From: Methanobacteriota archaeon
Lineage (GTDB): Archaea > Thermoplasmatota > Poseidoniia > Poseidoniales > Poseidoniaceae
Reading direction: 5' to 3'
NCBI GenBank assembly: GCA_002718195.1
Contig: PBDU01000005.1
Span: forward strand, 3,638-67,637
DNA length: 64,000 bases
Under the pieces are notes generated by a model. That model saw only the letters and a program-made list of their open reading frames with translations, searched no databases and was not told the origin of the DNA. This document shows, one piece after another, positions 7,196 to 64,000 of this stretch. Both the position numbers and the translations under genes were made by a program. Every line of letters begins with the position of its first letter. Within the stretch, counting starts at the first letter, position 1.

Positions 7196-7758
7196 TATCA
7201 ATGGCTGAAAAGCTTAACATCCTTAGATTAGGATATCGCAAGGGTAGAGACCCTAGGATAACAACCCATTTGGCGCTGGTCTCAAGAGCCTTAGGCGCTG
7301 ATAACTTTATTCTTGCAGGAGATGAAGACAATGATATGTTTGAGAATATATCTGGGGTAAACCAAAGGTTTGGCGGAAGCATGGAATGTGAACATACGGA
7401 TAAGCCAATGAAATGGCTTCGTAATTTTGTAAATCAAGATGCAGGAGATGGTCAGCCAGGTGTCGCAATACACCTAACAATGTATGGGCAACCTTACAGG
7501 CAAGTTATTCCTCAAATAAGAAAGGACAGACCGGTAGTTGTTGTTGTTGGAGGGGCTAAGGTACCCTCAGAGGTTTTCGAGTTATCGCAATATAACCTGG
7601 CAGTAGGAAATCAACCACATTCCGAAGTGGCCGCACTTGCTCTATTTCTGGAGGCTTGGAATGGTCCATCTGCGTCTGAAAAGTTACTGGAGGATGGAGA
7701 GCTCATAATTCACCCTTCAGCAAAAGGAAAAGACGTTACTGATACCAGAAAAGAATAG
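7192..7758 (+). CDS. trm56: Archaeal tRNA (cytidine(56)-2'-O)-methyltransferase
   Basis: LRLGYRKGRDPRITTHLALVSRALGA, HLTMYG, VVGGAKVP and NQPHSEVAALA SPOUT motifs. Confidence 0.95.
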   Translation: MISMAEKLNILRLGYRKGRDPRITTHLALVSRALGADNFILAGDEDNDMFENISGVNQRFGGSMECEHTDKPMKWLRNFVNQDAGDGQPGVAIHLTMYGQPYRQVIPQIRKDRPVVVVVGGAKVPSEVFELSQYNLAVGNQPHSEVAALALFLEAWNGPSASEKLLEDGELIIHPSAKGKDVTDTRKE

Positions 7759-7824
7759 TTTTCTTCTAGTGAGAATCTATGATTTCCTTCCCTAATCATT
7801 ATGGATGTCCTTCAATGACGATTT

Positions 7825-12470: not shown

Positions 12471-12559
12471 TTATTGACATTTACAGGTTTATTGATTATT
12501 CTGCCTTGTTCAATTCAGATTACCGTTAGACTTGAAAGCAGGTTTTCTTTTGTCATACC

Positions 12560-15385: not shown

Positions 15386-15394
15386 ACTAATTCC

Positions 15395-15976
15395 TCAAAC
15401 AGGGACTGCTCTGATTACTCCTCTTAGAGGAACTCCATCAATTTCATTTCTTGTGGTTTTGTTTACCAAAACAATTGCCAAAACTGGTTCAGCACCAAGT
15501 TCTCTCATAGTTTGAATCGTTTTTGTCATCGTTACACCGGAGGATAAAACATCATCCACAATTATTACTTTCTTTCCTTGTACTTGTCCGTATTTTTTAG
15601 ACAATGAACCAGCGCCAGGAGCGCCATCGATGTTTCGATGTATTGCGATTTCAGAATCAAGGTAGGAAGAAACAACTTGTGCAAACAATATGCCATTAAT
15701 CGAAATTCCTACGGTTGTTGAAATATTCTCGGCTCCAACTTCTTCATCTGCAATATCAGCCATTATAGATCCAATTGCTTCCATTCTTGCAGGTTTAACT
15801 CCGATTGTCCTCCAACCAATTCTTACATCGCTAGGAGCTTCGTTTGAATCACCCGCTAATAACCAAGCGATTGTATCTTGTGAGAGGGATAATTCATCGG
15901 CAATTTGCTGGGAATTTAATCCTGATTTTCTCATATTTGATGCAGTTGCGCGCAACTCTTCTATGCTCATTATCAT
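15395..15976 (-). CDS. HTH + phosphoribosyltransferase protein (PyrE-like / GfcR-type regulator)
   Basis: N-terminal HTH (GLNSQQIADELSLSQDTIAWLL) followed by the PRT motif VIIVDDVLSSGVT. Confidence 0.88.
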   Translation of the reverse strand: MIMSIEELRATASNMRKSGLNSQQIADELSLSQDTIAWLLAGDSNEAPSDVRIGWRTIGVKPARMEAIGSIMADIADEEVGAENISTTVGISINGILFAQVVSSYLDSEIAIHRNIDGAPGAGSLSKKYGQVQGKKVIIVDDVLSSGVTMTKTIQTMRELGAEPVLAIVLVNKTTRNEIDGVPLRGVIRAVPV

Positions 15977-16068
15977 GGTGAACGATATCGGGCAAGTGTA
16001 AGGAGCACATCAATGCTATGGCTCAAAATTTCCAAAGCATTCAAGTGATATCGGCAAAGCGCAAGGAC

Positions 16069-16479
16069 ATGGCAGACTTTGATTACGAGTCATTGCTCGA
16101 GCGTGCTAGGGAAAAAATCCCAACAGATATATCCTCGAAGCGCAGATGGAGACTTCCACCTCCACAAATTCTTATCGAAGGTAATAACACCATCTTCAGG
16201 AACTTCAAAGAGGTCATAGACATGATGGAAAGAGATGAAGATCACTTTTTCCAATACATTTTGAATGAATTTGGTACATCTGGTGCAAGAGATGGTCCGA
16301 GAGCTAGATTCAAAGGAAGAATACCACCAAAGAGAATCAAAAAGACGATTATTAACTATGTTAATACATACATAAAATGTTCACAATGCTCAGCACCTGA
16401 TACGCACTTCATCAAAGAGGGAAGAACTACTCTCCTCAAGTGTCAAGCATGTGGTGCAACCAGACCTGTTAGGCTGTGA
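16069..16479 (+). CDS. eif2b: Translation initiation factor aIF2 beta subunit
   Basis: DYESLLERA, EGNNTIFRNF and zinc ribbon CSQCSAPDT..KCQACGA. Confidence 0.95.
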   Translation: MADFDYESLLERAREKIPTDISSKRRWRLPPPQILIEGNNTIFRNFKEVIDMMERDEDHFFQYILNEFGTSGARDGPRARFKGRIPPKRIKKTIINYVNTYIKCSQCSAPDTHFIKEGRTTLLKCQACGATRPVRL

Positions 16480-16484
16480 AGTAA

Positions 16485-16799
16485 TCAATCTAATCTCATC
16501 AAGATTGAATCGCTTTTTTCACCGGTGATGATATGGTTCCAAACTTTTTCTAGGTCCTCTTCTGATTTAATTGAGTACCAGACTCCCTCGGGATATATTA
16601 CACATGAAACTCCTTGTTCACAGTAATTCAAACAACCTGATTTTTGCACTCTGATATTTTTTATACCTTCTTCTCTAGATCTTCTTTTGAGTTTGGTCAT
16701 CATCTCAAGTGATGATTTACTCTTACAATCTCCTCTCTTATGTCCAGGTGTCCTCTCATGTCCACAGAAGAATACATGGCGCTTGTAACCCGGTTCCAT
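16485..16799 (-). CDS. Thioredoxin-like [2Fe-2S] ferredoxin
   Basis: HVFFC..GDC..KSGCLNYCEQG..VIYPEGVWY pattern. Confidence 0.9.
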   Translation of the reverse strand: MEPGYKRHVFFCGHERTPGHKRGDCKSKSSLEMMTKLKRRSREEGIKNIRVQKSGCLNYCEQGVSCVIYPEGVWYSIKSEEDLEKVWNHIITGEKSDSILMRLD

Positions 16800-17047
16800 C
16801 AAATAGCCTCCTCTATTTTGTTTGCTAGTTTGAAATCTAATTGAGTGACGGCATTTTCATCATGTGTATAACATTCGATTACAACATAACCCCATCCGAA
16901 ATGAAGTTCTGGATGATGGTTCAATCGCTCTGCAATTTCTGAAATCTTGTCAACGATTTGTTTTGCTTGATTGAAATCTGAGCATTCTAATTCCCGCATT
17001 AGTCTTCCATCAACCAAGGTCCACCCGTCGGGAGCTTGGGTACTCAA
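16799..17047 (-). CDS. Pterin-4-alpha-carbinolamine dehydratase
   Basis: GW..L.R..DF..A..V.KI..IAE.LNHHPEL motif and CYTHD..VTQLDF.LA; TTG at 17047 inferred just after the upstream stop. Confidence 0.9.
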   Translation of the reverse strand: MSTQAPDGWTLVDGRLMRELECSDFNQAKQIVDKISEIAERLNHHPELHFGWGYVVIECYTHDENAVTQLDFKLANKIEEAI

Positions 17048-17051
17048 ATAA

Positions 17052-17492
17052 TCATCCCCAGAGATGAGAATCATCACTTTTGTTGGTTTTCTTTTCAACG
17101 GTTTCATGCAGTTTATTTCTTCTCTTCATGTCTGCTCTTTCATAAGTCAATAATTCAGAGTCATCGATGTATGCGGGCCTAGTATGACAGATTAGGGATA
17201 TTTTCACAACCACATCTCTTGCTATGTACTGGTGAATTCCATTCTCATCATGTAATTCTATGCTAGATTTACCGCTGCTCAGTAGTCTGCCTCGCAGTGT
17301 GTGTTCATCCTCTTCTCTGAGTGACCTTGCGTCTAATTGAATTTCTACGATATCATCTCTTCTCAAACCATGCCTTCGTTCTAAAAGTTCACCATGAACG
17401 ACACTCACAAAATCCTCAATTTTTGGACTCCCCATGTCTTTGAGTATCTTTTCCGCCCATTGAGGCAACTCAGCATCCTTCTTCTTCGGCAT
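17052..17492 (-). CDS. Hypothetical protein, possible Sm-like beta-barrel
   Basis: Beta-rich core (VEIQL..LRGRLLSSGKSSIEL..HQYIARDVVVKISL) and a charged helical tail; ATG at 17492 preferred. Confidence 0.65.
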   Translation of the reverse strand: MPKKKDAELPQWAEKILKDMGSPKIEDFVSVVHGELLERRHGLRRDDIVEIQLDARSLREEDEHTLRGRLLSSGKSSIELHDENGIHQYIARDVVVKISLICHTRPAYIDDSELLTYERADMKRRNKLHETVEKKTNKSDDSHLWG

Positions 17493-17615
17493 AATTACTC
17501 CTTGATTCGGACTCCCATAAACCCCGCTATCTAAAAACTTGAATTTTCTTTGCAAGATTTGCTTTCACAGGAATGCATTCATGAAGGGTGGGTTTCAGCC
17601 CTTGCATGATAGCAT

Positions 17616-18740
17616 ATGAAAATCTCATGGCGTACTTTGCCCACGGTGCTATTATCTGATGAGATTTTAGACAAGGCCTTTACCAAGGCAAGGAAGGCTT
17701 CAGAACGAGTAGAAGACCCACATAAGATTTTCAGAACCAGGAAGCAGATGATAAGAATGGTTCAAACCAGTGCGGATTCAATACGTTCACACTTCGATAA
17801 CATGGTATCGACGTGGCCAAGTCTTGATCACATCCCAGAATTTGATTATGCGATGATAGATGCTTGTGTCGGTTGCGATGATTACAGAAAAAATCTGGCT
17901 ACTTTGCAGTGGGCTGGTGAGACGATTTCAAAGATAGCAGGGCAGAATGTAAAGAAGATTACAAGAACTGCTAACATAGAGTTTATGCATTCCACAAGAA
18001 GGGAATTTTACGGAAGAGTAGGCTCTATCATGGGAAGGGTGGAAAAACCACTAAAATGGCTAAACGAAGCAAGAGAAACTCTCAAACAGCTACCTCAAAT
18101 TGACACTGCACACCCATGCATAGTCGTATGTGGAGCTCCAAATGTTGGCAAATCGGCATTTATTGAAGCCTTGTCATCTGGAAAGACTGAGGTAAATCAT
18201 TACCCATTTACAACTAAGAGAATTCATTTAGGGCACTTTTTGCACAGGAGATTACAGTACCAAATGGTGGACACGCCCGGTTTATTAGACAGGTCAATGG
18301 AGTCTCGAAATGCAATCGAAATGCAAGCGATTGCAGCTTTGAAGCACCTTGGCTCACTAGTTCTATTCTTGTTAGACCCAACAGAAAAATGTGGAACCTC
18401 ATTGGTTGAACAACAGAATCTCTATTCGGAGGTTGAAAATTTGCTAGAAGGAACTGATATTCTCCTAGTAACAAGTAAAGCTGACTTGATTGAACCACGA
18501 CCTGAGTTATGGGATGAAGTTGCCAGACACGAACAAGAATATCGAAGTGGTGAGATTGATGATATTGTAGATATGCCACTTCTTTTAGATTCAAATGGAC
18601 ATGTTACAATGAGTGCTATTGAGAATGTAGGAATGGATTCTTTGAGAATGGAGATTGTGAAGAGAGTGATGGAATCACAGCCTGATGACCCTCTTGCTTT
18701 GCCTGAAGGTTGGCACATGAAAACTCAAGGATTAGATTGA
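17616..18740 (+). CDS. NOG1-family (Obg-like) GTP-binding protein
   Basis: G1 GAPNVGKS, YPFTT, G3 DTPG and G4 TSKAD, with the NOG1 helical N-domain. Confidence 0.93.
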   Translation: MKISWRTLPTVLLSDEILDKAFTKARKASERVEDPHKIFRTRKQMIRMVQTSADSIRSHFDNMVSTWPSLDHIPEFDYAMIDACVGCDDYRKNLATLQWAGETISKIAGQNVKKITRTANIEFMHSTRREFYGRVGSIMGRVEKPLKWLNEARETLKQLPQIDTAHPCIVVCGAPNVGKSAFIEALSSGKTEVNHYPFTTKRIHLGHFLHRRLQYQMVDTPGLLDRSMESRNAIEMQAIAALKHLGSLVLFLLDPTEKCGTSLVEQQNLYSEVENLLEGTDILLVTSKADLIEPRPELWDEVARHEQEYRSGEIDDIVDMPLLLDSNGHVTMSAIENVGMDSLRMEIVKRVMESQPDDPLALPEGWHMKTQGLD

Positions 18741-19010
18741 GTTGAAAATAATCGGTCCGACGAATGCAAAGGCAAACAATCCAAGAAATACGAACATCCA
18801 AACTCTCATTTGCTTCTGATTCTTTTCATCTTTGATGTTTCTATCGATGCAATCTTGCTCGGAACAAACACGTGGATCAGTCCCACTTGGGATGACCTCG
18901 TAACATACCCTGCAATGTAAATGTGCAGGAACTCTGTTCAAATTTCCAGAGGGCTGAGATTTGGTTTTCTTTTTGCTAACATTCTGTTTGATTTTCGATG
19001 CATTGACCAT
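18732..19010 (-). CDS. DUF2116-like Zn-ribbon membrane protein
   Basis: HLHCRVCYEVIP..VCSEQDC followed by a C-terminal TM. Confidence 0.8.
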   Translation of the reverse strand: MVNASKIKQNVSKKKTKSQPSGNLNRVPAHLHCRVCYEVIPSGTDPRVCSEQDCIDRNIKDEKNQKQMRVWMFVFLGLFAFAFVGPIIFNSI

Positions 19011-19019
19011 GTTTTCACC

Positions 19020-19730
19020 TCAATTAATGCTAATTTTGCTGCCTTCGAATGATTTCCCTGATAAGGCCTCTGAAAGGATTCGAATATTTTTACCATCTAG
19101 AACACTTATCTCTATAGAATGCTCAATTGCAACGCTTACTGCAATAGGATCAATAACTGCAGATTGCCCTGGCTTGAATTCTTCACCTACTCGACATATT
19201 TTTGCCAGTTGTGCGAGGTTCAATGATTTCAGTGCGATAGCATCTGCAAATTTGTGGGGGTCTTTGTCGTAGACATAGGGCACGTCGGTAGCAATTACAC
19301 ATCTCTGTGCTTCACAATCAACTGCCATTCTAGTTGCTACTGCATCTGTGGTATGACCAGGAGTAGTTCCTCCCATGCAGACAAAATTGTGGTTGCTTAG
19401 AAGTTGTTTAGCCTCAATAGTAGTATTAGGTATGATTTCTGATACGTTAAGTCCATTTGCAATCAGTACTTGTTGAATTGTTGTTGCATTCAATTTCGTG
19501 GCAGCGATGCCTATCAAATCTAGTCTCTTGGAGTCAGAAATTGAGCTCTTTGCCAAGTTTATTCCGTACCGGGCAGGAGTTCCTCCTCCAATTACGAAAC
19601 CCAATTTCCCATTGCTTTCTTGGATTGATTTGCATAAATCAACTAACTCTGAGAACCATCTGTCTAAATCGTGTCCTTCTCTTGTTTTAAGCAAAGAGCC
19701 TCCTAAGGCCACGATTTGAGACTTTACCAT
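19020..19730 (-). CDS. pyrH: Uridylate kinase
   Basis: ALGGSL, VIGGG, MGGTTPGHTTDAVA and VYDKDP motifs; ATG at 19730. Confidence 0.93.
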   Translation of the reverse strand: MVKSQIVALGGSLLKTREGHDLDRWFSELVDLCKSIQESNGKLGFVIGGGTPARYGINLAKSSISDSKRLDLIGIAATKLNATTIQQVLIANGLNVSEIIPNTTIEAKQLLSNHNFVCMGGTTPGHTTDAVATRMAVDCEAQRCVIATDVPYVYDKDPHKFADAIALKSLNLAQLAKICRVGEEFKPGQSAVIDPIAVSVAIEHSIEISVLDGKNIRILSEALSGKSFEGSKISIN

Positions 19731-39951: not shown

Positions 39952-40037
39952 ACGGGGGTGGCTGAGTTGGTCAAAGGCGCCGGGCTTAAGATCCGGTCCG
40001 TAATGGTTCGTGGGTTCGAATCCCATCCCCCGTACCA
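39952..40037 (+). tRNA. tRNA-Leu(UAA), CCA encoded
   Basis: Acceptor ACGGGGG/CCCCCGT + A-CCA; anticodon arm CCGGG-CT-TAA-GA-TCCGG; variable arm; T-arm GTGGG-TTCGAAT-CCCAT. Confidence 0.97.
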
Positions 40038-40146: not shown

Positions 40147-43110
40147 ATGCTGATAAGCAAAAACACGGTTAGTTTTTCCTCATTGCTTTCTGCAATCGTT
40201 GTTCTATTTTTCATGGTTTCATCCACTTCATTAGTGCCCTATACATCTAATGATAACGGAGTAGCTACACTAGAAGATGAAACCATTGTTAGTCAAGTAC
40301 CTAGTAACTTGGAGAATTACCGCCTATACCTTGGAGAGGAAAATTCCACCATGGGAGGGGATGGATCGATCACCACCGAAGAGCCTGACGGTTCTGGGCA
40401 GCAAGAAATAAGCGCTCTCGGAGGGGTGGATTTTAACTCTGTTGAAATGATTTCAGATTTACAAATTTACGGACAAGGGTCTGATGGCGATGAAATCCAG
40501 CTCTCTATATATCTCAAATTCACAGGTAATCAAAACGCAACAGCTGATGTAGATTTTTCCCTTAAATCAGGGGGAACTCAAGTTGCAAGCGAATCGATTA
40601 CCCTTGAAGACGCTTGCACACAAGGGGGATTGTTTGGTGGGGGAGATTGTTCTTGGACCATTAACGAGATATTCTTCGATGTGCTAACAGAAGGCTTCAC
40701 TGTAGAACAAGGAAAGCAACTCAAATTGACCGTTGACGCCCAAGTCTCGGGTTGCCAAGGAGGGGGAAACCCGGTTCCAGGACAAGATGGTGGCGGTGAT
40801 TGCGATGTGGAAATAGCATTCGGTGACATAGAGGGAACGAACAGTTACTCACGATTAGAGGTCAAAGCAAATGCTCTCGCAGATTCCAGTGTAAAAATCC
40901 ACAGACCAGGAGCATCATGGCTAGACCAAGAAGTTACTGAGTGGTCTCCAAATCACAGACCCGATTACAGAGCAATGCAATTTTCTGTTGACGTTAGAAA
41001 TGCCTTCGGAAGAAGTGATATCGACTCTGTTAGACTGTTAATGAGTACTCCAACTGGTGCAACAACTGTTTTTGACAAGGAATTTACAAGCAATGAATTA
41101 AGACTTGATAATAATGGTCTGGTGGGCAATTTTACCTTCACTTATGATTCCGGCATAGATGCGGGTCAGTATCCAATATCACTTGAGATAAGAGATGTTC
41201 AAGGTCACCAAGTATTGTTCCAACATCCAGATGGAGTCACTATGGTTGAGCACGATATTTTCTTAACCTTGCCAACAAACCAACCTGATGTCGTCAGAAT
41301 CGCTCCCGGGCAGACTTCTTCTGTTGAATTCATGGTAGAACACACAGGTTCAGCGGGAAAAGCAATGGATGTTAGGTTTGAGGTCACGTCTTACATTCCA
41401 AATTCATGGTCGGACCCGTTATGGGATACCCCTTCAGTTTACTCATTATCTGGAGGTGGAGCTATAGCGAGGCCTATATTGAGCATCGATGTTCCTGATG
41501 CAGATCTAAGTGACGCTCCTGATAGGCTAGAGATTGAGGCTCATGCATTCGCAGAAAATTCAGAAGGGCAAACAGTACAGGTTGCAGTTGAGACCATAGT
41601 TTTGGACATCGAGGAGGTTGGAGTGTACTCTCCTCCAAGAGTGTCAGTCTACGAAGATGTGGAACAACAAATTCAAATCGCAGATTCAGACAGACCTGAA
41701 ATTTATGATTCAAACTTATCGCATTATATAGATTCTAGCGAAGAGGGAGATTTCTACATGGATATCCTCAATTCTGGTTTTGACACTGACACATTCAGAA
41801 TCAGGGTTATTCAAATTCCAGATGGATGGCAGTATCGCTTATTCGATAACGCAACTGGTAGTGAGTTGGCTGAAGAGGGAATACACTCTGTTACTCCTTC
41901 AATTGGGTCACAACAAATCCTCGGAGTTAAACTAATTCTTTACCCACCTGCAGACAGAGATTCACAAGATATCGGTATGGTTTCTATGTCTGTTTCTAGT
42001 TCTGGAGATTCAGAGTTGAAGAGTAATATTGATTTCACAATTCACAGAACTTTTGGAGTACTTGCAGAAGTTATCTCAGATTCTGATGCACAGCAACTTG
42101 GTCGGGTGGAAAATTTAGATCCTCGTGACACAGTAAATTTCGGAATCAGAATAACAGATTCAGGAGATTCTGCCTCACAGACTACATGGAAAATAATTTC
42201 TCCTGAGAACTTGCCTGAGAATACTCAAAATGGGTCTATTTATGGATCATGGACATATGAGTTGACGGACGAGACCGGTGAATCTGTAACCGTTCTTCGC
42301 TTGAATTCAGGAGAGTTTGGCGATATCTCCCTATCAATAGAGCTAGGAAATCAAGTGACTGCTGGAATTCACGTCATTTACCTAAGGGTAACTGAAGAAG
42401 GCGTAGATGAAGACGATAATCCTAGGTACTTTGATCTACCACTAACACTGGAAGTAGAAGAAGAGGTTAGAGAGCAAAACTTAGAGATAACTCAAGTAAG
42501 CCCCGAGCCGAAATTTGGTAATGGAGTAACCGAAACCATAGAGTACAGAATTGATAATCAAAACAACATTCCACTGAATGTATTTATCACCACAGTCGAG
42601 CCAAATGGTTGGACTTCTGAACTTAAAGCAAGTGCTGAGCAAAATGGCGGTAGTTTCCTATTGTTGACTATTGATGCTTATGGGACTGAGAACTTCAATG
42701 TGGACATAACTCCTCCTGAGAGCACAAAGAACGGCGAGGAAATAACTTTCAGGATAGAAGTTACTCCAATGGATGAAAGCGCTCCATACGGGCCCGAATA
42801 CATACAATATGGTGATTTCAACTACCTTACTAGCTGTAGCGGATTAGCATGTTTAATCAACGAAATTACCAATCCATCTCAAACTACCATTGCATTGATG
42901 GTTTTAGGTGCAATTTTGGTTCTCTATTGGGTAAACAGTGCTGCTAAGAATAGAGCAAATAGAGCTGCAGGTTTAGTTGTGAAGGAATTTGAAGAAAGCG
43001 TGGAATCACTGGAAGAAGAGCAAGCAGATTCTGAGATTCCTGAACCAGTAAAAATGGAAGAGGAAGAAGATGATGATTTAGAGCTTCTAGAAGAATTGGA
43101 AGACCTCTAA
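40147..43110 (+). CDS. Large membrane-anchored surface protein with repeated Ig-like (NEW3/CARDB-like) modules
   Basis: N-terminal hydrophobic signal, beta-rich acidic ectodomain, C-terminal TM and poly-acidic tail; domain names are by resemblance only. Confidence 0.75.
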   Translation: MLISKNTVSFSSLLSAIVVLFFMVSSTSLVPYTSNDNGVATLEDETIVSQVPSNLENYRLYLGEENSTMGGDGSITTEEPDGSGQQEISALGGVDFNSVEMISDLQIYGQGSDGDEIQLSIYLKFTGNQNATADVDFSLKSGGTQVASESITLEDACTQGGLFGGGDCSWTINEIFFDVLTEGFTVEQGKQLKLTVDAQVSGCQGGGNPVPGQDGGGDCDVEIAFGDIEGTNSYSRLEVKANALADSSVKIHRPGASWLDQEVTEWSPNHRPDYRAMQFSVDVRNAFGRSDIDSVRLLMSTPTGATTVFDKEFTSNELRLDNNGLVGNFTFTYDSGIDAGQYPISLEIRDVQGHQVLFQHPDGVTMVEHDIFLTLPTNQPDVVRIAPGQTSSVEFMVEHTGSAGKAMDVRFEVTSYIPNSWSDPLWDTPSVYSLSGGGAIARPILSIDVPDADLSDAPDRLEIEAHAFAENSEGQTVQVAVETIVLDIEEVGVYSPPRVSVYEDVEQQIQIADSDRPEIYDSNLSHYIDSSEEGDFYMDILNSGFDTDTFRIRVIQIPDGWQYRLFDNATGSELAEEGIHSVTPSIGSQQILGVKLILYPPADRDSQDIGMVSMSVSSSGDSELKSNIDFTIHRTFGVLAEVISDSDAQQLGRVENLDPRDTVNFGIRITDSGDSASQTTWKIISPENLPENTQNGSIYGSWTYELTDETGESVTVLRLNSGEFGDISLSIELGNQVTAGIHVIYLRVTEEGVDEDDNPRYFDLPLTLEVEEEVREQNLEITQVSPEPKFGNGVTETIEYRIDNQNNIPLNVFITTVEPNGWTSELKASAEQNGGSFLLLTIDAYGTENFNVDITPPESTKNGEEITFRIEVTPMDESAPYGPEYIQYGDFNYLTSCSGLACLINEITNPSQTTIALMVLGAILVLYWVNSAAKNRANRAAGLVVKEFEESVESLEEEQADSEIPEPVKMEEEEDDDLELLEELEDL

Positions 43111-43165
43111 ATCGTCCTTAGAATTACTTTATTTTCTGTCGGTGTATGAACAACGCACCATTTCC

Positions 43166-43180
43166 CTTATGAGTCATAAG
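43166..43180. promoter_or_regulatory. Perfect palindrome over the promoter of the giant surface-protein gene
   Basis: CTTATGA-G-TCATAAG, ending 24 nt before the likely ATG at 43205. Confidence 0.45.
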
Positions 43181-43204
43181 TGTGAGGCGCATTTGGTAAT
43201 AGCC

Positions 43205-46200
43205 ATGCGTATGCTTTCTCCATCCACCAGCGCGCAACAAAAACTTGCTATATCTGGGGCAAAACAGAAGATATCCTCACTGAGTTTGGTGACGATAATG
43301 CTTCTTTCACTATTTGCCACCATACAAATAGGAATCAACCAAGTCAGTGCAGCATCAGACCAAGATGGAGATGGTCTGACCTATGGTTTGGAGTATTTGA
43401 TGAACACAGCTCCAAATGACCCGGATTCTGATAACGATGGTCTGCCCGATGGATGGGAATGGATGCATGGTTTGGATCCTCTATCTGCTAACAACGCAGA
43501 TGGAGCGGTTGGGGACCCTGATGGAGATGGAATGTCGAATCTTCAGGAGTATACTTACCTGATGCCTAGCGGCTGGGATTCATCTAATACTCCTTCAGTT
43601 CTAGACAACGGAGTTTGGTGGAATGGCACAGTTCCAACAAATGACTGGAACGAAGAAGGTGCCCTTGTTTACAATCAACCTGCCTGTGGTAGTACTGGTT
43701 CTGATGGAACTGGTAACACTATCCTTTGTGATGAAGACCCAGTTGGAAATATCTGTACTAACGGATTTGATGACGACAAAGATGGGCTAGTAGACAGTGC
43801 TGACCCGGATAACGATGGAGACGCAGATTGTTCAAGCGATGATGATGATGGAGATGGTATTGCAGACGAGGACGTAGCCGGCTGGGACACCGATGGTGAC
43901 GGAATGCCTGACGGTTGGGAAGTTTCATACGGTCTAAACGCAACCTCAGCATCTAACGATGATGGAGCAAATGGAGACCCCGATGGAGATGGATTGAACA
44001 ACCTCTATGAATACGTGAATCCTTCATGGACAACATTGTGTAACGGTGTTCCTTGCTGGAATCCCGGACCTAACGGTCAAGTTACAGAAACCATTTCACC
44101 ATGTGACCCTGTTACAGGCATCGGTCCTGGTGGATGCGCAACCCTAACTGCGGAAGTAGATGGAATAACCTCGACCAATCCCACTCGTGCAGACACTGAC
44201 GGTGATGGTCTGAATGATTCTTACGAGGCTCTTACTCTGCTGACTGACCCTACATCTTCGGATACCGATAGCGATGGAATAAGCGATGGAGTAGAGGTTG
44301 GCTCAGCCTACGGACAGCCAGCCCAATCCAGCAATCCAAGAGATAACAACACTGATGGGGACGCATTTGATGATGGAGATGAGGATAAAAACGGAAACGG
44401 TATCTTGGATGCAGGAGAGACAGACCCGACAAGAAGGGAGGATGCCGGAGATTTCGATAATGATGGAATCCAAAACTGGGAAGAAAACTTGTCATGTACT
44501 GCTTGGGATATTGCAGATACAGACTTTGGTGGAGTAAATGACGGAGATGAAAGAAATGTTAGCCACGGAACAGACCCGTGTGATTCTCTTACCGACTTCA
44601 AGACCACTATTTCTAACTGGAATTCATTTACCTCACAGTTAACTTTGACAGATGGATCTGGGTTCAATCCTTCAGGAGGTGTCGGTTGGTATAATTCAAG
44701 TGGAACCTGGAGTGCATTTTCCTATATTGCCGTAGTAAATAATGTACTACAACAGGTATCTCCTGGACCCGCAAACGGTGTTACAGAAGTAGCAAATAGA
44801 AACGGTTCTTTCTGTCATACATCTGCGACAAATGATGGGACAATTTCTACAACCCGAAATTACTGTGATGATGATTATACAGATGGAGATGGCGATGGAC
44901 TTGCTGACTGGGAAGAACTTCTTGGTACATATGGATGGTTCAGTAATCCCACTCTAGTCGACACCGATGCTGATGGAGTTCCTGATTTCCAAGAAGCAGT
45001 TTTGGATAACACCGACCCTAATGATCCGTGTTTGAATCTTTTAGACTCTGACGGAGATGGACTGAACAATTACTTCGAAAACTCCACTGGTTGTACCCTT
45101 GATTCCTTAGGAATTACAAATGGTTCAAGCGATATATGGGTTACTGGATGGGACCAGATAGATACCGATAACGGTGGAGTTGGAGACAGAGATGAATACT
45201 TTGATGGAACCAATCCTGAAAACGATCCGAGTGATGATTTACTTCCCGATGACTTTGATGGCGATGGTATACCGGATGCTGTTGAAAATGCATCCAGCAC
45301 AGACTGGAGAAATCCGGATACTGATGGTGGAGGTATGATGGATGGAGCAGAATGCCCTGAACAATTTTGGTTCTTCAACTGCGTAGGAGCGCCGTTTAAT
45401 CCACTAGATCCAACCGATGACCAGGTCAATAACGACATTATTTTCTGGGCGAATAATACCACTGGAACGGTTGACATTGAACAGCCACATTATTGGAGAC
45501 TAACCACCAGTGATTTCTACACAGGTTCGACCTATGCACATCTCAATAGCGTCCATCCTCCAGCAGAAGTTATCACTCCTATCACTAATCTTACCAACTT
45601 GGCTGATTTGAGTTTTGCAAATGATACGGTGACATGGAACATAGTATACAACTTCCCAATTTCTACAGGGAATATACCTCAACCCTACTATCTCTCCAAC
45701 ATTTCGTATTGGACCGATGCAGGGGCAGTGGTTCTAAGGGCCAATGATACCCACACTCTGTCGCTTGAGACGGGTTCTCTCGAGATACTTCTCACTCAAC
45801 AACCAGAGTACTACTTCGACTGGGCAACTCTTGCATCGACAACAATCGGACACACCAACTCTACATACGCAACAATCCTTCCAGCTGAATTCACTAACCA
45901 ATCATTCGCTGAGTCGATGGTAATGAACATCTCGAACGGCGTAGTTACAGATGCAGGTGCTCTTGATGCCTACTCCAAAGCCTCTGCATTAGCTGATTTC
46001 CTTGTCAACGGGAATGCAACAACAGAATTCAAGAGAAATTACAATTCTAGTAACCTACCTGGTGATGCTGATTTGACAATGCATATGCTGAATGTGGCAA
46101 AGGAAGGAACGTGTGCAGAATTTGCGACAACTTTCGTCACAATGGCTAGATCATTGGGTCTTCCTGCTAGATTGGTTACAGGTTACCAAGATGGTATTTG

Positions 46201-49200
46201 GACAGGAACTGGTTATGCTGTCTATGCTAACGCAAGAACAACCTGGGGAGAAGTAAGACTTCAACAAAACTCAGCAAATGGGAATACCGACTTGGGTTGG
46301 ATTCCGTTTGAATCATGCCCTGAGCCAGAAAATCTGACGATAGCAAATCAAACTATTAACACCCTGACTTGGGATAGAGATGGCTCTCAAGAAGTCTCAG
46401 TAAGCGGTCAATTACTTTACGCAGACAATTCCACACCGATACAAGATATACCGCTTGTTGGATATCTTGTTAGGACCGATGATGTAGATGGAGTTCCTGG
46501 AGATGCTGCTATCCCAGGTAGAGAATTCGGTTCGATAATTACAGATGCAAACGGAAATTTCACAATAAACGGGACCCCCAGTAACCCAGTTTTGCCAGGA
46601 TTTACCCAGATTGTTATCAATCACAAACAATCTGGCTATGTGGGTGATGATGGCATAGCCTTCGATCAGATAATCAACGTGACAGATGATTCTGAAATAG
46701 TTCATGTAGCACCAAATGCAGTTAACTCCCCAGTTGTTGGAGCAGGTGCTACTACAATAGTTAGTGGTATTTTACAACTAGAGTCAAATCCACAATTGCT
46801 GGATGATTATTACCAAGGTTTGTCCGTTTGGCTGAGTTTCACATCTAGTGTAGATGGTGCTCAAAATTTGACAGGTATTGTTGAACAAGATGGTTCATGG
46901 CAGATTGAAGTTTCACTTGATCCGCTTGAAACAAAAACAAACCTGTCTGCTCAACTAGGATTCTCCGGTTGGACTGATACGGGTCAAGTTTTTGCCTCGC
47001 CAGTACACATTAGAGATTCTACACAACCAATCAATTTGGACATTAGAGATGCACCTAACTTGACTGCAACGATAGAAGGTCCAGGAGCCAACAATAGTGT
47101 GATAGATCTTGATGACACTGTTTACATCAACGGAACAGCAGTTTCGTTTGGAGCAACACCACAAAATATGGAAGGAATGCTTTCATTCAGAATGAGAGAA
47201 AATGATAGTGGTGGAGATTTCATCGAGATATTCAACCAATCTGTAAACGGTACCTTCTCAATTCCATATTTCCTCAACTCAACTCTAATTCCAGTCGCCG
47301 CTGGTGAAATAGAGATGATACTAAGATTCTATCCAACTCTGTATGAAGCTACAGACGATGCAAACCTTTCAACTGGTGCACCTTACGCTCTAAGAGGAGT
47401 ATTGACATATGAAGTGGATGCTCAATCACAGCTCAGAGGTGGACCAGCGAATTTATTGATACAGCTATACGATCATAGAGGTGCGTCTGTGGGTCTAAAT
47501 GTTCCTGGAAATTATGACTTTATCTTCAACAATTCATGGGTTAATACAACTGTTGATCCTGCTTCGACACTCATTAACTTAGCATTTGATATCGATGCAA
47601 ATATGTTTGCTGGCGATTATCCATTCGACATTTCGTTTAATGGTTCAGACCTATATGTTCCAAACTCCGATTCAACAACTGTTAGAGTAATGGCTGAAAT
47701 TGGCTGGAACCTAACTTCTGCAGACGATTGGGTGCACATTGGCAATTCAACCTTCATCACAGGTGACTTCTATGACGCTGTACATAACACAAGAGTCGTT
47801 GGAAATGACACATTGTTGACATTGGTTCTACTCACAGAAGAAGGACCGATTGACCTTGCATTAGGTCAACTCGACAATACTACAGGTGAATTCAACCTTA
47901 CAGCAAAGATGCCTACAACGCTACCTTCAGGAGTATACACTCTAGAATTAGCAGCAGATTTCCTATCACTTGCACCTCCAGGTGGTGCATACTACACATG
48001 GGTTGATACTGCGACACCACCTTCTCCTCCGAGTTCGATATCAATTGAAATCGGAATTGAATCGGAAGTCGTCATCGTTCCTGAACAGGAACAAATGCTC
48101 ATCCTTTCAGGTGATACTATGGATCTGCGTGCTAAGATATTCGACATAGCAGACATGAGTAACGTTTCCGGCGCTACAGTGGAATTCATTTTCGATTATG
48201 GTGGTTCTAATACATCGATTGGCACAGTTATATCAGATGCAGAAGGAAATGCAACTCTTCAATGGACGGCCACTGACATCGGTCCTGGATATTATGACTT
48301 ACAAATTCTAGTAGCAGACGATGTATCTGCACCATTGGTTGCAGGAAATACGAGGAGGACAGGAAACTCTACTCTTGTGAACATGACTGTTCAATCAACT
48401 ACCAACGTGGTATTTGATGTGGCTCCAAATAATATCACTGCTGGTCAGAATTTCAATATTCAAGGAAGAGTAGTCGATGGTTTGAATGCTTCTCGCCCAA
48501 TGGTGTCAAGAGTTCAGGTCACCGCTTTCTGGGAGGATGAACCTGATGAGATTCTGGTAAGGAACACCTTTACTGCGCTAAACGGTTCGTTTAATTTGAG
48601 TGTTCCAACTGATACAGAAAACGATGGAACCACAAGGGGAGTGCGCTCGTTAGTCGTAGATGTAGTTCCGGACTCTTCGCCTTTCTACCTAGGTGGTAGA
48701 GCAAATACTTCGATGCTTGTTTTCGGTGTGACACAATTTGAGAACTTGAATCCTATCAATCCAGTAATTATCAACCGTGGCGAGACTGTAAATTTGAGTG
48801 CGAAATTGGTTGAAGCCACTGACCTATTTGCTCCTCTGGGTGGATATCCAGTTGCAATTATGTTCCATGAATCATGGGTTGCGGATACAACTACCACTGG
48901 AGATGGTTTTGCTAATACTAGTTTTGTTCTCGATGCCAATCACCCACTTGGCTTGGTCACAGCTACCTGGATGTTCAACGGTTCCTCTGATCTAAGAGCG
49001 GGTATTGCTAACTTGAGCACTGTTACTGTACGCTCGGTTACCTTCATGGTGATAGATGACATTGCTTCAAACCCAATTGCTGGTGATTCGTTCAACATAT
49101 CTGGTAGAGTGACATCAGACAATGGATCGGGAATGGAAACAAGAGATGGTATGGTATTACCAAGCAATGTACTGTTCAGAATTAACGGAGAGCCTGCAGG

Positions 49201-58735: not shown

Positions 58736-61700
58736 TCATTGGTTGTAAACTTCCCACTTCTGTGCGCTCTCATCCCAGTAAGATAGCGTACCATCTGCCG
58801 CTTGGGACCAGTGAACACCATTCTCTTCCCACTGTTGTGGTTCTACTTGTGCGCTCTGCTCTAAGTTAGGTAAATCTTTAGTTGGCTCTTCTTGAGCTGC
58901 GAATGCTTCAGATTGTAGGTCAATATTTTCTTGAGTTTGTGCAAAACTTTCCTCGATATCATTTCCATTTCTTCCTACAACTAGAACAGCTGCTAGAATT
59001 CCAATCACTAGAAGTACAGCGATTGTAATGAATAAGCCTGAGTTGGAAGATTCCTCTTCTAACTCACTTCTAAGTGCATCATCAGGATAGGCGTCGAACT
59101 CATCAGCAACCCCGTCATTGTCCCTATCGGAATATATGCTAGCATTATCTGGGAAAGCATCTTCTGCATCATTAACTCCATCACCATCAGAGTCCTTCTG
59201 CTCCAAAGCACATCCATTTTCATCAACGATTGATCCCGTAGCCGTATTTGTGCAAAGGTCTAGGTTGTCTGAAACTCCATCACCATCTGTGTCTAATTGT
59301 GTTGTAGAGCATCCTTCGATGTTAACAACTTCTCCTTCCGGAGTTTCTGGGCATTGATCTTGTGCATCATTGATATTGTCTTCATCAGAATCCAGTTGGC
59401 TGTCGGAACATCCCTCTTGGTCAACCTGCTCTCTTTCTGGAGTAGCGAAACAGATGTCTAGAGCATCGCTAATTCCATCATTGTCTGCATCAAGTTCTGT
59501 TTGCGAGCAACCTGTGATATCAACGCCTTCACCTGCAGGTGTCATAGGACATTGGTCCTCAGCATCGTTAATTAGGTCGCCATCAGTATCCTTTTGCTCA
59601 TCTGCACATCCGTTAGAATCTATTTCTACGTCTGTTGGCGTGTATGGGCACAAATCATCAGCATCCCAAACTCCATCCATATCAGCGTCTGATTCTGTTG
59701 CCGAACAGCCAATACCGTTCACGTTCTCGCCTTCTGTAGTGTTTGGACATTGGTCTCTTGAATTGTCAATACCGTCGTTGTCAGAATCTAGTTGGTAAGG
59801 TGCACAACCTGCATTATCCACTGCAGCGTTTAATGTCGTTGAAGGACACTGGTCATATGCATCTGCAACGCCATCTTGGTCACCGTCCTTTTCGGTATCT
59901 GAACAACCAAAGGAATCAACAGATTCACCTTCTGGGGTGTTTGGACAAGCATCTGCGTTATTCTTGATGCCGTCTTCGTCATCATCTAATTCGAATTCAG
60001 CACATCCTACCGAATTAACGACGTTTCCACTTGGTGTGTCCGGGCAGTAATCAGGATTGGTTCCTGAAATATTATCCCCATACCCATCTCCATCACGATC
60101 CGACCATTGTGTACTATCGTTAGGATAAGCATCTGCGTTATTTCCTGCAGCATTGTCTCCATAGCTGTCTCCGTCAGAGTCTTTCCATTGAGTTGAGTCT
60201 TGTGGGAATGCATCAGGGTCATTGCCTGCTTGGTTATCTCCATATCCATCACCGTCAGAATCTTCCCACTGGGTTGAGTCTTGAGGGAATGCATCAGCAT
60301 TGTTTCCTGCAGGGTTATCTCCGTATCCATCTCCATCAGAATCTTCCCATTGTGTTCCATCGGTAGGGAATAGGTCAGGTGAGTTTCCAGTTGCGTTGTC
60401 TCCGTATCCATCACCATCAGTATCTTCCCATTGTGTCCCATCGTTAGGGAATTGGTCTCCATTTGTGCCGGCTGGGTTGTCGCCATATCCGTCACCGTCT
60501 GAGTCTGTCCATTGAGAAGGATCAGCAGGCCACAAGTCTGGGTTGTTTCCGTTTGGATTATCCCCGTATCCATCTCCATCGGTATCTGCCCATTGGGTTG
60601 AATCTTGAGGGAATTCATCAGAGTTGGAATAACCAGGATTGTCTCCCCATCCATCTCCATCAATGTCGCTCCATTGGTTAGCATCAGTTGGGAAGTGGTC
60701 TGGATTCGAGCCGTTCATGTTGTCTCCATATCCATCACCATCAGTATCCTTCCACTGTGAAGAATCGTATGGGAAATCATCTATATTATCATTGAATCCA
60801 TCAAAGTCAGAATCTCTCTGATTAGAAGCACATCCATCTGCATCAACTACTGCTCCGGAGTCAGTTCCTGGACACAAATCATCCTCATTTATTACTCCGT
60901 CTCCGTCATTGTCGAAGTTCAGCACAAAGCAATCAGTTTCCCCAATTAGTTGAGTTCCAGATTGAGAATATAGATAGGTTGAGGCACAATAAGTACCACT
61001 AGCATTTGGTGTTGAATAACTCCAAGTTCCCAAGCTCTGTATTGTGCTTGTCGCAGTGAAGGTGGTCAGATTACTGGATGCTATTGTAGCATTTCCAGAG
61101 TCATGAATCTTGATTTGGTATTGATAGGTATCACCAGAGACAAGGTCCCATCCACTAACAGTGACATCGTTAGTGCTAGATGTTGCACTAGTTGAGTAAC
61201 TATCAATTCTGACTGAAGGCAATTGTGGAATGAAATATTCTTCATGATAACCGATAACATCTCCAGTAGAATTGTAAGCTACTGCATAAAATAAGTGACT
61301 ACTCATTGTGGTTGGAGCAGTCCAACTGACATTCAGTGTCTGGCTAGTTGAATTTGTGGTTATGTTTTTCCAATTTGCATCAACGATATTTCCGCTAGAG
61401 TCCTCAACTACGTACAGAATGTCGATAGAGTCTCCACTAGTAACGTTCGTGAGATACAAAAATGCATTCGTAGATGATTGAACGACTGATTGTAATTTCT
61501 CGTAATAATATCCATCACCATCTGCGGATAACATGGTGTTTCCGGTAGAGTCGTAAAGATAGGCAATCATCACGAATACCCCCTCACATTCTGTAATCGG
61601 GTAAGTTACATTGTAGTATTCAACTGTATTATTGGCTGTTATAGTAATTGGGTTGTAAGTGTCGATTGTATAATTTGGCCAGGTGCTTACAACTCTATTC

Positions 61701-64000
61701 TCTATCTCTAGTTCAAGTTGATAGGAGGAGCCAACTGTGAGTCCAGTCATCATAATCGAAGAGACATTCTTATCGAGCTTTGTGACCTCGACAGTTTCGA
61801 ATGCTTGCCCACCTCCAGGGTTATTGGTTGTAATCTCGATATCGTAAACATTGGTTGCACCACTGTATCCATAAACTTCGATGAAAGAAGTAATGTTTGA
61901 CTGAGCGGTCACTGACATAGATTCTAGATTTGAAGTTCCTCCAGAACTGTCAAGATAACCACCTGTCGCATCATCCCAATTGGTATCGAGATCACCATTT
62001 GAGTGAGTGAATGTAATATTCACGTAATAGGTTACTCCCTGAACCAAGTATACCTCAAAATAATCTGTATCTGAACTACTATCAATTGACAGACCTGTGC
62101 AAGATACTGGTAAAACACTTGCTTGGGTCGCAGTGGTAGTTAGGTCATTTGGTTCTAATATGTCTGGATTTAAGGTTGCATTACCTGTACAATTACTCAG
62201 AGGAGAGGATCCATTACCTCCTCCTCCACCGGTACCATTTCCGCTAGACCATTGAACATTGAATTTGTACAAGTCCAGGGTATAGTTGATTTCACCTACA
62301 TTAGCTGCAAGGTACAGGATAACTGGTGATCCGGGGTATGTGGTTGTGGAATTTGTTGTTACTGTCAAAGTCCCTGAGCCGGTGTCAGTGTCTATGAAAT
62401 TGACAATTCCATTATCTAGAAGATAAATGTCTACGTCATTTGTAACCGTAGTCCCGTTAGAATATGTTGTTGATGTAGGGAATGTCAGAACTGCAGTCAG
62501 TCCTTCGTTTGAGTTTAGAGAGACTCGTAGCGCATCTACCGAATCAGCAGTATCGCTCATGAACCCACTGCCAGAAAGCGAGCCAGAGAAAATGAAGTTT
62601 GTCAGTGTCGAGGTATTGGCTAAATTTGCACCAAGATCTCCTCCAGTTCCCATGTCATTTTGTGTTTGGAATGTTTGTGAAAACTTCCAGATGGTAAGGT
62701 TCCAATCAACATAACCTGCGTTAACAAAAATGCCTAGAATAATTGGTCCAGAAGGCTGGAAGGTGGTGCCGTTTGTTGAAAGTGATAATGTGTTTGAACC
62801 GCTGTAATCTTCGTCGATTAAGTTAATGTTAGCATCTGCGATAACTGCTTCAACATCGTTTGTAATCGTGGTTCCATTCGGAGCAGTGCTCGTTTGGTTG
62901 AAAGTAATCTGTATGGCAACTCCCTCATTTTGTCCGATTGAGATAGTCATTATATCTTCGATATCATTTAGTTCATCAATATACCCAGTTCCACTCAAAG
63001 AGGTCGAGAAGTTAAAATTCGGAATTGACGATATAGATTGTCCAGTGTACGAAGGCAAGTCCGCATTGGTGTTCATGTCGTTTTGAGTTGTCCCATTTGA
63101 TGAGCTTGTGGTCCATCCACTCCATGTTCCAGTATAGGTGCTGCCTACGGTTCCATCGGTTCCAGCGCTACCATAACTTCCTGTTCCGTATGGAGCACCG
63201 CCGTTACCTGCCCATCCCTCGTCAGCAAAAACAGTTCCAGTTGGTATGTTGAGATTTGAAGTGCTGCTTGCACGGATATCAACAATTCCTCCGGAGCCAC
63301 CGCCACCGCCGTTTCCTCCGTCATACAGTCCGATACATACGCCTGTACAGTCTCCATCAGCGCCATCTCCACCAAATCCTCCATCTGCAGCTATCTCAGC
63401 AGATGATCCAACGTTCACTTGATTTGCTCTCATGATGATGCTTCCACCTGAACCACCGCCGGCTCCTGAACCACCATTTCCTGAGCCATTTTGATATCTG
63501 TAACCGCTTTCACCATCATACCCAGAAGCATCCACAGTTCCATTGATATTGATAACATCAGCATAAACTACAATTCTTCCACCACCAGATCCTCCCGCAG
63601 AAACTAGGTTACCGCTGGAATCGAAGACTGAACCTCCGTTAGAGCCGGTTTCATTTCCAACTCCATACGAAGAACCACCGTTGCTACTGGCAGCACCCCC
63701 TGATCCACCAGAACCGTAGTGACCTGCTCCGCCCGCACCATCTCCTCTCCAAGCAGAAGATAGAGTGACAGATGTTCCAACTCCTTGTGTGTTGGTTGGG
63801 TAATCAATTGCTGTAATGGTTGCTCCGTACTCCACTGTCAGAGTATTTACGGTTAGAACAAGGTCTCCTGTTGCAACGATTTCACCGCATGAACTTATCC
63901 CGCAGCCTATGTATAAATTGTCATATGATTGGTTGCCACTAAGATATGTTGTGTTTAGAATTGTTGAATTTGTTGTCCCAACACCTGGTGGTGAGAACTT
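58736..64000 (-). CDS. Large surface protein (5' end beyond the window): Gly-rich domain, PPC-like domains, thrombospondin type-3-like repeats, TM, aromatic cytoplasmic tail
   Basis: The frame is open from 63835 to the window edge (KFSPPGVG..VEYG); QND/PND..D.DY PPC-like motifs; 27-aa and 33-aa DxDxDG repeats; TM GLFITIAVLLVIGILAAVLVVG. Confidence 0.9.
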   Translation of the reverse strand, partial: KFSPPGVGTTNSTILNTTYLSGNQSYDNLYIGCGISSCGEIVATGDLVLTVNTLTVEYGATITAIDYPTNTQGVGTSVTLSSAWRGDGAGGAGHYGSGGSGGAASSNGGSSYGVGNETGSNGGSVFDSSGNLVSAGGSGGGRIVVYADVININGTVDASGYDGESGYRYQNGSGNGGSGAGGGSGGSIIMRANQVNVGSSAEIAADGGFGGDGADGDCTGVCIGLYDGGNGGGGGSGGIVDIRASSTSNLNIPTGTVFADEGWAGNGGAPYGTGSYGSAGTDGTVGSTYTGTWSGWTTSSSNGTTQNDMNTNADLPSYTGQSISSIPNFNFSTSLSGTGYIDELNDIEDIMTISIGQNEGVAIQITFNQTSTAPNGTTITNDVEAVIADANINLIDEDYSGSNTLSLSTNGTTFQPSGPIILGIFVNAGYVDWNLTIWKFSQTFQTQNDMGTGGDLGANLANTSTLTNFIFSGSLSGSGFMSDTADSVDALRVSLNSNEGLTAVLTFPTSTTYSNGTTVTNDVDIYLLDNGIVNFIDTDTGSGTLTVTTNSTTTYPGSPVILYLAANVGEINYTLDLYKFNVQWSSGNGTGGGGGNGSSPLSNCTGNATLNPDILEPNDLTTTATQASVLPVSCTGLSIDSSSDTDYFEVYLVQGVTYYVNITFTHSNGDLDTNWDDATGGYLDSSGGTSNLESMSVTAQSNITSFIEVYGYSGATNVYDIEITTNNPGGGQAFETVEVTKLDKNVSSIMMTGLTVGSSYQLELEIENRVVSTWPNYTIDTYNPITITANNTVEYYNVTYPITECEGVFVMIAYLYDSTGNTMLSADGDGYYYEKLQSVVQSSTNAFLYLTNVTSGDSIDILYVVEDSSGNIVDANWKNITTNSTSQTLNVSWTAPTTMSSHLFYAVAYNSTGDVIGYHEEYFIPQLPSVRIDSYSTSATSSTNDVTVSGWDLVSGDTYQYQIKIHDSGNATIASSNLTTFTATSTIQSLGTWSYSTPNASGTYCASTYLYSQSGTQLIGETDCFVLNFDNDGDGVINEDDLCPGTDSGAVVDADGCASNQRDSDFDGFNDNIDDFPYDSSQWKDTDGDGYGDNMNGSNPDHFPTDANQWSDIDGDGWGDNPGYSNSDEFPQDSTQWADTDGDGYGDNPNGNNPDLWPADPSQWTDSDGDGYGDNPAGTNGDQFPNDGTQWEDTDGDGYGDNATGNSPDLFPTDGTQWEDSDGDGYGDNPAGNNADAFPQDSTQWEDSDGDGYGDNQAGNDPDAFPQDSTQWKDSDGDSYGDNAAGNNADAYPNDSTQWSDRDGDGYGDNISGTNPDYCPDTPSGNVVNSVGCAEFELDDDEDGIKNNADACPNTPEGESVDSFGCSDTEKDGDQDGVADAYDQCPSTTLNAAVDNAGCAPYQLDSDNDGIDNSRDQCPNTTEGENVNGIGCSATESDADMDGVWDADDLCPYTPTDVEIDSNGCADEQKDTDGDLINDAEDQCPMTPAGEGVDITGCSQTELDADNDGISDALDICFATPEREQVDQEGCSDSQLDSDEDNINDAQDQCPETPEGEVVNIEGCSTTQLDTDGDGVSDNLDLCTNTATGSIVDENGCALEQKDSDGDGVNDAEDAFPDNASIYSDRDNDGVADEFDAYPDDALRSELEEESSNSGLFITIAVLLVIGILAAVLVVGRNGNDIEESFAQTQENIDLQSEAFAAQEEPTKDLPNLEQSAQVEPQQWEENGVHWSQAADGTLSYWDESAQKWEVYNQ
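59195..59986 (-). repeat. Eight tandem 33-aa (99-bp) Cys-pair TSP3-like coding repeats
   Basis: Units such as DGDQDGVADAYDQCPSTTLNAAVDNAGCAPYQL in exact 99-bp register. Confidence 0.9.
60038..60766 (-). repeat. Nine tandem 27-aa (81-bp) TSP3-like coding repeats
   Basis: Units such as DSTQWEDSDGDGYGDNQAGNDPDAFPQ in exact 81-bp register. Confidence 0.9.

Follow-up and report, generated by a model that had tools for sequence, protein, structure and literature searches.

Background

The closest described counterpart of the gene analysed here is TgpA (PA2873) of Pseudomonas aeruginosa, a protein of 668-688 aa whose transglutaminase activity has been measured and which has an intact Cys-His-Asp triad and five N-terminal transmembrane (TM) helices (DUF3488) (PMC3507681); the YebA/TgpA-type family has been linked to MoxR and vWA/DUF58 genes (PMC3495828). 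Inactive transglutaminase-like proteins have been read as binding or structural modules (PMC13073648, PMC3495828), and the view has been put forward that such domains serve to bind peptides (PMC3495828). The gene in question encodes a giant protein of a Marine Group II (MGII) archaeon (order Poseidoniales) and lies within a window of 64,000 nucleotides (contig PBDU01000005.1, positions 3,638 to 67,637, assembly GCA_002718195.1), in whose numbering coordinates are given unless another contig or locus is named. Its open reading frame (ORF, 43142..52132, + strand) contains a TgpA-like module (residues 776-1085, 45467..46396) that has lost the catalytic His and in which the former nucleophile has probably become part of a disulfide.

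MGII archaea rank among the most abundant archaea in the surface ocean and, to our knowledge, are uncultured, with a cell envelope that has not been characterised. A search of a literature library on MGII or Poseidoniales and transglutaminase found no paper that connects the two or describes the giant, and a search on DUF4129, DUF4350 and DUF58 found nothing relevant.

TgpA (6g49/6g4h) is the best match in both sequence and fold over the two-lobed module of the giant, and the two proteins share the order of a module outside the cell, a TM helix and a cytoplasmic DUF4129 domain. Unlike TgpA, the giant has 2,996 aa and a single N-terminal hydrophobic segment with no five-TM DUF3488 block (PF11992, DUF3488/TgpA_N, gave no match at E 0.01 or better). 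Its module is preceded by 690 aa of calcium repeats and separated from the TM helix by a stalk of 1,765 aa; the His is missing, a Cys stands two residues past the catalytic Asp position (Asp+2), and neither MoxR nor DUF58 adjoins the gene. The giant derives from the TgpA/YebA type and works in a similar way, but lacks several of its defining features. Another likeness is to erythrocyte band 4.2 and the ciliary CC2D2A/CEP76-type TGL domains, which have a transglutaminase fold without a working triad. Those proteins are eukaryotic and intracellular. Band 4.2 loses the Cys itself, whereas the giant keeps it and adds a second one.

Fold and family of the module

Judged from profile matches and a structural model, the module retains the transglutaminase fold. 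The Pfam Transglut_core profile (PF01841) matched residues 938-1057 (E 3.6e-15, 56.6 bits with a cut-off of 23; 63.2 bits in the genome scan), the match stopping on Glu1057 at profile position 107 of 108, which is the site of the catalytic Asp, and the nucleophile Cys991 lies within a G-x-C-x-x-F motif. The AlphaFold2 (AF2) model of residues 776-1085 (pLDDT 82, pTM 0.84) consists of an N-terminal beta-sandwich lobe and a transglutaminase (papain-like) core. Its best Foldseek match was the TgpA periplasmic domain (6g4h/6g49; E 7e-10, TM-score 0.57-0.63), with an alignment that spans ~290 of the 310 columns and includes both lobes; 3isr, TG2 and FXIII followed after TgpA. A search of the genome for a second transglutaminase core found none beside this one.

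These matches, together with a profile match to 6g49 in the PDB, bear out the initial annotation, which had placed the module in the TgpA-like family from the letters of the DNA. The motifs that it had quoted are all present, namely GTCAEFA with Cys991 (46112..46114), ARSLGLPARLVTGY, NARTTWGEV with Thr1033 (46238..46240) and GWIPFESC with Glu1057 (46310..46312). A single-sequence search of the PDB covered the Cys helix only, without the His and Asp strands, and a profile of 23 orthologs was needed to reach the His strand. This profile aligned 'dahaWve' of TgpA (6g49) onto 'dlatWge' of the family, so that H-A-W-V-E of TgpA falls on T-T-W-G-E, which identifies Thr1033 as the equivalent of the catalytic His.

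Loss of the catalytic His and drift of the Asp column

The catalytic columns were counted in 113 distinct complete modules, pooled from proteins and loci. The nucleophile column was Cys in all of them (113/113), whereas the His column was occupied by Thr (47), Ala (37), Ser (16), Gly (3), Arg (3), Asp (3), Asn (2), Leu (1) or Gln (1), and never by His (0/113). The Trp two residues past the His column was invariant (113/113), and R1003, P1008, R1010, W1035, E1037, G1052 and W1053 are conserved residues of the core. His was absent even from orthologs with full-length identity as low as ~30%. The loss seen in this one module on its long stalk, as initially annotated, is thus fixed among orthologs and is not a recent degeneration of a single copy; the alignments indicate that His was lost before the order Poseidoniales diversified and has stayed lost since. 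No other His was found to complete the triad, for when every column of the 310-aa module was searched for a replacement, none held an invariant His and the best column had His in 101 of 113 modules.

The remaining substitutions that had been proposed as a rewired triad fared less well. The Asp column held Asp in 93 modules, Glu in 14, Asn in 2, Gln in 2, Ser in 1 and Lys in 1, so that most orthologs have Asp where the present module has Glu1057, and Glu is also found at this site in at least 80 of 260 cores of more distant relatives that keep both Cys and His. A change from Asp to Glu is therefore no mark of rewiring. In one genus (L030-L032; G059, G009 and G083) the motif reads GWQPFQACP or GWQPFKACP, with Gln or Lys in the Asp column and both cysteines kept. 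By its pattern of substitution the Asp column appears to be released from constraint; a working Cys-Asp or Cys-Glu dyad should not tolerate drift to Glu, Asn, Gln, Ser and Lys. The Arg that had been suggested as a substitute for the His stands in the residue before the His column, and this position varies (Ala in 38 modules, Leu in 26, Arg in 26, and others).

Pairing of the cysteines

The second Cys of the module, Cys1059 (46316..46318), occupies the Asp+2 column and is as invariant as the nucleophile (113/113). The initial annotation had raised this residue as a possible catalytic substitute; its invariance held, and the pattern of Cys pairs fits a disulfide partner better than a catalytic role. 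In a full-length alignment of 30 orthologs from three families, the ectodomain Cys form ten pairs of neighbours, whose two members are present in 24/24, 28/28, 22/22, 30/29, 30/30, 30/30, 30/30, 28/28, 30/30 and 21/21 orthologs, respectively. The members of a pair are present or absent together, and Cys991 and Cys1059 make up the ninth pair (30/30). There is no unpaired ectodomain Cys in the giant, and there are few in the orthologs.

The position of Cys1059 is suggestive as well. In human TG2 the equivalent residue Thr360 (Asp358+2) lines the active-site tunnel with Trp241 and Trp332 (PMC13073648), which would place a Cys at Asp+2 next to the nucleophile. In His-bearing relatives Asp+2 is Thr and the catalytic Cys is unpaired. 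The module of a giant from the sister order, described below, contains the catalytic Cys only, and another Thermoplasmatota giant with a canonical core (2,660 aa; L070, G282:C71, 237-8219, - strand) has one Cys in its whole length, the catalytic one. Given the strict pairing of all other ectodomain Cys, and by analogy with TG2, Cys991 and Cys1059 probably form a disulfide in the emptied catalytic centre. The nucleophile has apparently been kept because it was recruited into this new bond.

Distribution, conservation and expression in Poseidoniales

A whole-genome scan of the Poseidoniales detected the module in 199 of 201 genomes, representing all of the 24 genera (24/24) and three families. 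It is nearly always present in one copy per genome, in frames of ~2,950-3,100 aa wherever the gene lies on its contig in full. More than 170 full-length relatives of ~2,970 aa came up in a word-indexed search, and those that are named are labelled as Poseidoniales, Thermoplasmatota or Euryarchaeota archaea. Metatranscriptome contigs matched both the giant and its 987-aa upstream partner along their lengths at 99% identity or more, the module included. A gene that is near-universal, single-copy, maintained in length and represented by transcript contigs is under strong selection.

Conservation is uneven along the protein. The calcium head is the best conserved region (identity to orthologs 0.72 overall and 0.60 for the distant families), followed by the C-terminal tail (0.63 and 0.56) and the module (0.49 and 0.36), with the stalk and the TM helix last.

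Relatives outside the order

An exhaustive search with the module covered 1.84 billion representative proteins. The next relatives beyond the order were giants in which two to four cores of the AHQWAEV...GWVTFEPT type stand in tandem; these cores keep the His and include the Cys-His-Glu cores counted above. Where such tandem cores are degenerate, it is usually the Cys that has been lost (to Ser, Ala, Pro or Gly) while the His is retained. In a phylum-wide scan, complete modules within the order gave E values of 1e-34 or better, and matches outside it were 1e-16 or weaker.

A genome of the sister order, which belongs to the same class (L068; G226:C3:24000-43999, 6766-19236), encodes a giant of 2,660 aa whose core is canonical, with Cys-His-Glu (GKC...NAHAWVEV...GWVTFEPT); its gene is followed directly by DUF4350, MoxR and DUF58 genes and a 319-aa ORF without a family. 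Like the MGII giant, this protein combines thrombospondin type 3 (TSP3) repeats (12 in the sister-order protein), a TgpA-like module, an immunoglobulin (Ig)-like stalk, a TM helix and DUF4129. In contrast to the MGII giant, it carries the module ahead of the TSP3 array, close to the N-terminus; this module keeps a lone catalytic Cys within the canonical core and matches the MGII module profile only at E 2e-12 to 3e-15, and the gene adjoins the DUF4350-MoxR-DUF58 cluster. This gene arrangement looks like the ancestral one. The canonical core and the adjoining MoxR cluster of the sister-order giant indicate that loss of the His, gain of the Cys at Asp+2 and separation from MoxR are derived in the MGII lineage, and the Cys was gained in the same lineage that lost the His. 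Because it keeps both the canonical triad and the MoxR operon, the sister-order homologue offers a matched active control.

Proposed role of the module and alternative explanations

The most probable explanation of these observations is that the module is a disulfide-locked pseudo-transglutaminase, carried on a glycosylated surface fibre, that binds or scaffolds rather than catalyses; it is an active-site disulfide that leads the module to be read as a pseudo-transglutaminase. The giant would be a C-terminally anchored, acidic surface fibre of the MGII archaeon, with a head stiffened by seawater calcium and a long glycosylated stalk that would hold head and module away from the membrane. The Cys991-Cys1059 disulfide would fill the place of the lost His and lock the former active-site tunnel, leaving the module as a knob close to the fibre tip, with a structural role or one in binding peptides or ligands. 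Together with the 987-aa Ig-chain partner, with which it would be co-transcribed, the giant may form part of the outer envelope or of an adhesion device. The conserved DUF4129 tail would keep a cytoplasmic partner, most plausibly the unlinked DUF4350/MoxR/DUF58 machinery, whose genes are still in one operon with the giant of the sister order.

Several points weigh against this explanation. The module is less conserved than the head and the tail, so that the key function may lie elsewhere in the protein and the module could be a mere spacer. The disulfide is deduced from conservation, the pairing pattern and the analogy with TG2, and an invariant former nucleophile would be expected equally of a real enzyme. 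The partner gene adjoins the giant within a region that is broadly syntenic, which makes its adjacency by itself weak evidence of a functional link, and the link to MoxR, DUF58 and DUF4350 in the source genome is drawn by analogy.

It is possible, though unlikely, that the module is still an enzyme of a non-canonical kind, in which Cys991 is activated by Glu or Asp, by the second Cys or by a group of the substrate, and which would act on proteins of the envelope or of prey at a distance from the cell, by cross-linking or cleaving them. Such an enzyme would account for the invariance of Cys991 across the order despite an equally old loss of the His, a retention that is the reverse of the usual fate of degenerate cores in the relatives, and for the preservation of the fold and of so many of the core residues listed above. 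It is hard to reconcile with the Gln, Lys, Asn or Ser found in the Asp column of some lineages, with the variability of the Arg beside the His column and with a module that offers neither an invariant His nor another obvious general base. A catalytic thiol left free would moreover be the sole unpaired ectodomain Cys in a strictly paired set, and the oxidising surface ocean disfavours it. The same two cysteines might instead form a reversible, functional disulfide that gates the groove according to redox state or captures partners covalently by thiol-disulfide exchange, which we regard as doubtful. Of the two invariant thiols, one stands at the nucleophile site and the other at the equivalent of a tunnel-lining residue of TG2, the second one arose in the lineage that lost the His, and TG2 too has a regulatory disulfide (Cys370-Cys371, PMC13073648); however, the same data can be explained more economically by a plain structural disulfide, and no thioredoxin-like or DsbA-like gene lies beside the giant.

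A more far-reaching and rather improbable version is that the giant and its partner are the main envelope or attachment fibre of MGII, with the Cys pair acting as a thiol-disulfide device, as a groove gated by redox state or as a site that captures ligands covalently, whose state is relayed through the DUF4129 tail to the unlinked DUF4350/MoxR/DUF58 machinery. If true, such a device would be a chemistry that the transglutaminase fold is not known to perform. That the unusual core reflects gene decay or an error of assembly or annotation, with orthologs having a normal Cys-His-Asp triad, can practically be dismissed, since the frame is open over 2,996 codons, the module recurs in nearly every genome of the order with the same features in every module read, and the transcript contigs match it almost exactly.

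Being a single-copy protein of constant length, ~3,000 residues, that is encoded in 199 of 201 genomes and has transcripts in situ, the giant stands out as a strong candidate for a main surface structure of these archaea, which could act in attachment to particles or prey, as a glycocalyx or as a virus receptor. The module also offers a natural example of the passage from an enzyme fold to a pseudoenzyme, with the base lost, the third residue of the triad apparently unconstrained and the nucleophile kept. The observations added here are the paired presence and absence of all ectodomain Cys, the drift of the Asp column to Gln and Lys, the contrast with the lone Cys of His-bearing relatives and the operon of the sister order.

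Domain organisation of the giant

The frame is open from a GTG at 43142, and an in-frame ATG at 43205, which had been taken as the start in the initial annotation, corresponds to residue 22; the true start is likely to lie at 43193-43211, and the identical protein is listed in a database at 2,979 aa. A Kyte-Doolittle scan found two hydrophobic segments only. The N-terminal one (residues 43-68, 43268..43345) is a signal peptide or signal anchor, and the other is the TM helix (residues 2857-2875, 51710..51766), which is followed by a C-terminal tail of 121 aa that contains the predicted cytoplasmic DUF4129 domain (residues 2911-2980, 51872..52081; PF13559, E 3.3e-8).

Between these segments, Pfam, motif and hydrophobicity scans recovered the flanks of the module as they had been described. 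The predicted TSP3/DxDxDG calcium head (residues 71-760, 43352..45421) contains 19 DxDxDG-type motifs within residues 73-715 and eight conserved Cys pairs; it is matched by the repeat regions of CglD and MtsD, and the TSP3_bac profile (PF18884) scored 24.9 bits on the giant, with a cut-off of 25. The Ig-like stalk (residues 1086-2850, ~1,765 aa, 46397..51691) gave matches to Big_3_5, CarboxypepD_reg, Big_1, MG4 and Big_7, and would comprise ~18 beta-sandwiches, an estimate obtained by dividing its length by ~95 aa per domain. With 3.5-4 nm for each domain, the predicted length of the fibre is 60-80 nm.

The ectodomain contains 79 N-x-S/T sequons, where 36 are expected, and the stalk is rich in them. 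The giant is probably heavily glycosylated, given this wealth of N-glycosylation sequons. The ectodomain is also acidic (Asp and Glu 14%, Lys and Arg 3%), and the C-terminal tail has no sequon (0). An acidic, sequon-rich ectodomain with a sequon-free tail fits an archaeal surface glycoprotein whose tail is in the cytoplasm.

Genomic neighbourhood and unlinked candidate partners

The partner gene (987 aa, 40147..43110, + strand) lies directly upstream of the giant, in the same orientation, in all three families of the order, and overlaps it by 4 bp in one of the loci compared (L045). Its product has a signal peptide, a chain of Ig-like beta-sandwiches, a TM helix (residues 911-934) and an acidic tail. 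The partner gave no useful family match in Pfam up to E 1, and its AF2 model is all-beta (pLDDT 76) and retrieved only generic multi-Ig structures in Foldseek (TM-score 0.1-0.16). The synteny extends over lipoyl synthase, a short-chain dehydrogenase/reductase (SDR), the partner-giant pair and an XPD helicase. In the gap of 95 bp between partner and giant (43111-43204), a T-rich CTTTATTTT stretch could be an archaeal TATA-like box, and with this candidate element the giant may also have a promoter of its own. A tRNA-Leu gene (anticodon UAA, 39952-40037, + strand) is located just upstream of the two-gene unit, at a point where metatranscriptome contigs start or stop.

No MoxR or DUF58 gene adjoins the giant, whose neighbours are the lipoyl synthase, SDR, partner and XPD helicase genes; this absence had been noted at the outset, and the genes were located elsewhere in the genome. 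A DUF4350-MoxR-DUF58 operon is found on contig C11 (196085-200172; L012:6085-10172), a DUF4350-DUF58 pair on contig C1 (82006-84898; L014) and a second MoxR gene on contig C4 (35531-37552; L015), beside a ParA/MinD-type ATPase.

The genome also encodes a second DUF4129 giant (contig C27, 1067-9049; L013) of 2,660 aa, with TSP3-like motifs, a TM helix and a DUF4129 tail, in which no transglutaminase core was detected even by an unfiltered hidden Markov model search. Two DUF4129 matches, in frames of ~2,990 and ~2,600-2,700 aa, were present in 39 of 41 sampled Poseidoniales genomes. The source genome thus has as many DUF4350 and DUF58 sets and MoxR genes as DUF4129 giants, two of each, and none of these sets or genes is linked to the giants. 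The length of 2,660 aa shared by this protein, the sister-order giant and the Thermoplasmatota giant with a single Cys is a coincidence, as these are different and unrelated proteins.

Directly downstream of the giant and convergent with it is an ORF of 157 aa (52176-52649, - strand) without a family match, and ORFs of 157-166 aa hold the same place in other MGII genomes. Further downstream, an ORF of more than 1,750 aa with a TSP3 match (58736-64000, - strand) runs off the window; its relatives, of 1,141-1,376 aa, occupy the same place in other genomes.

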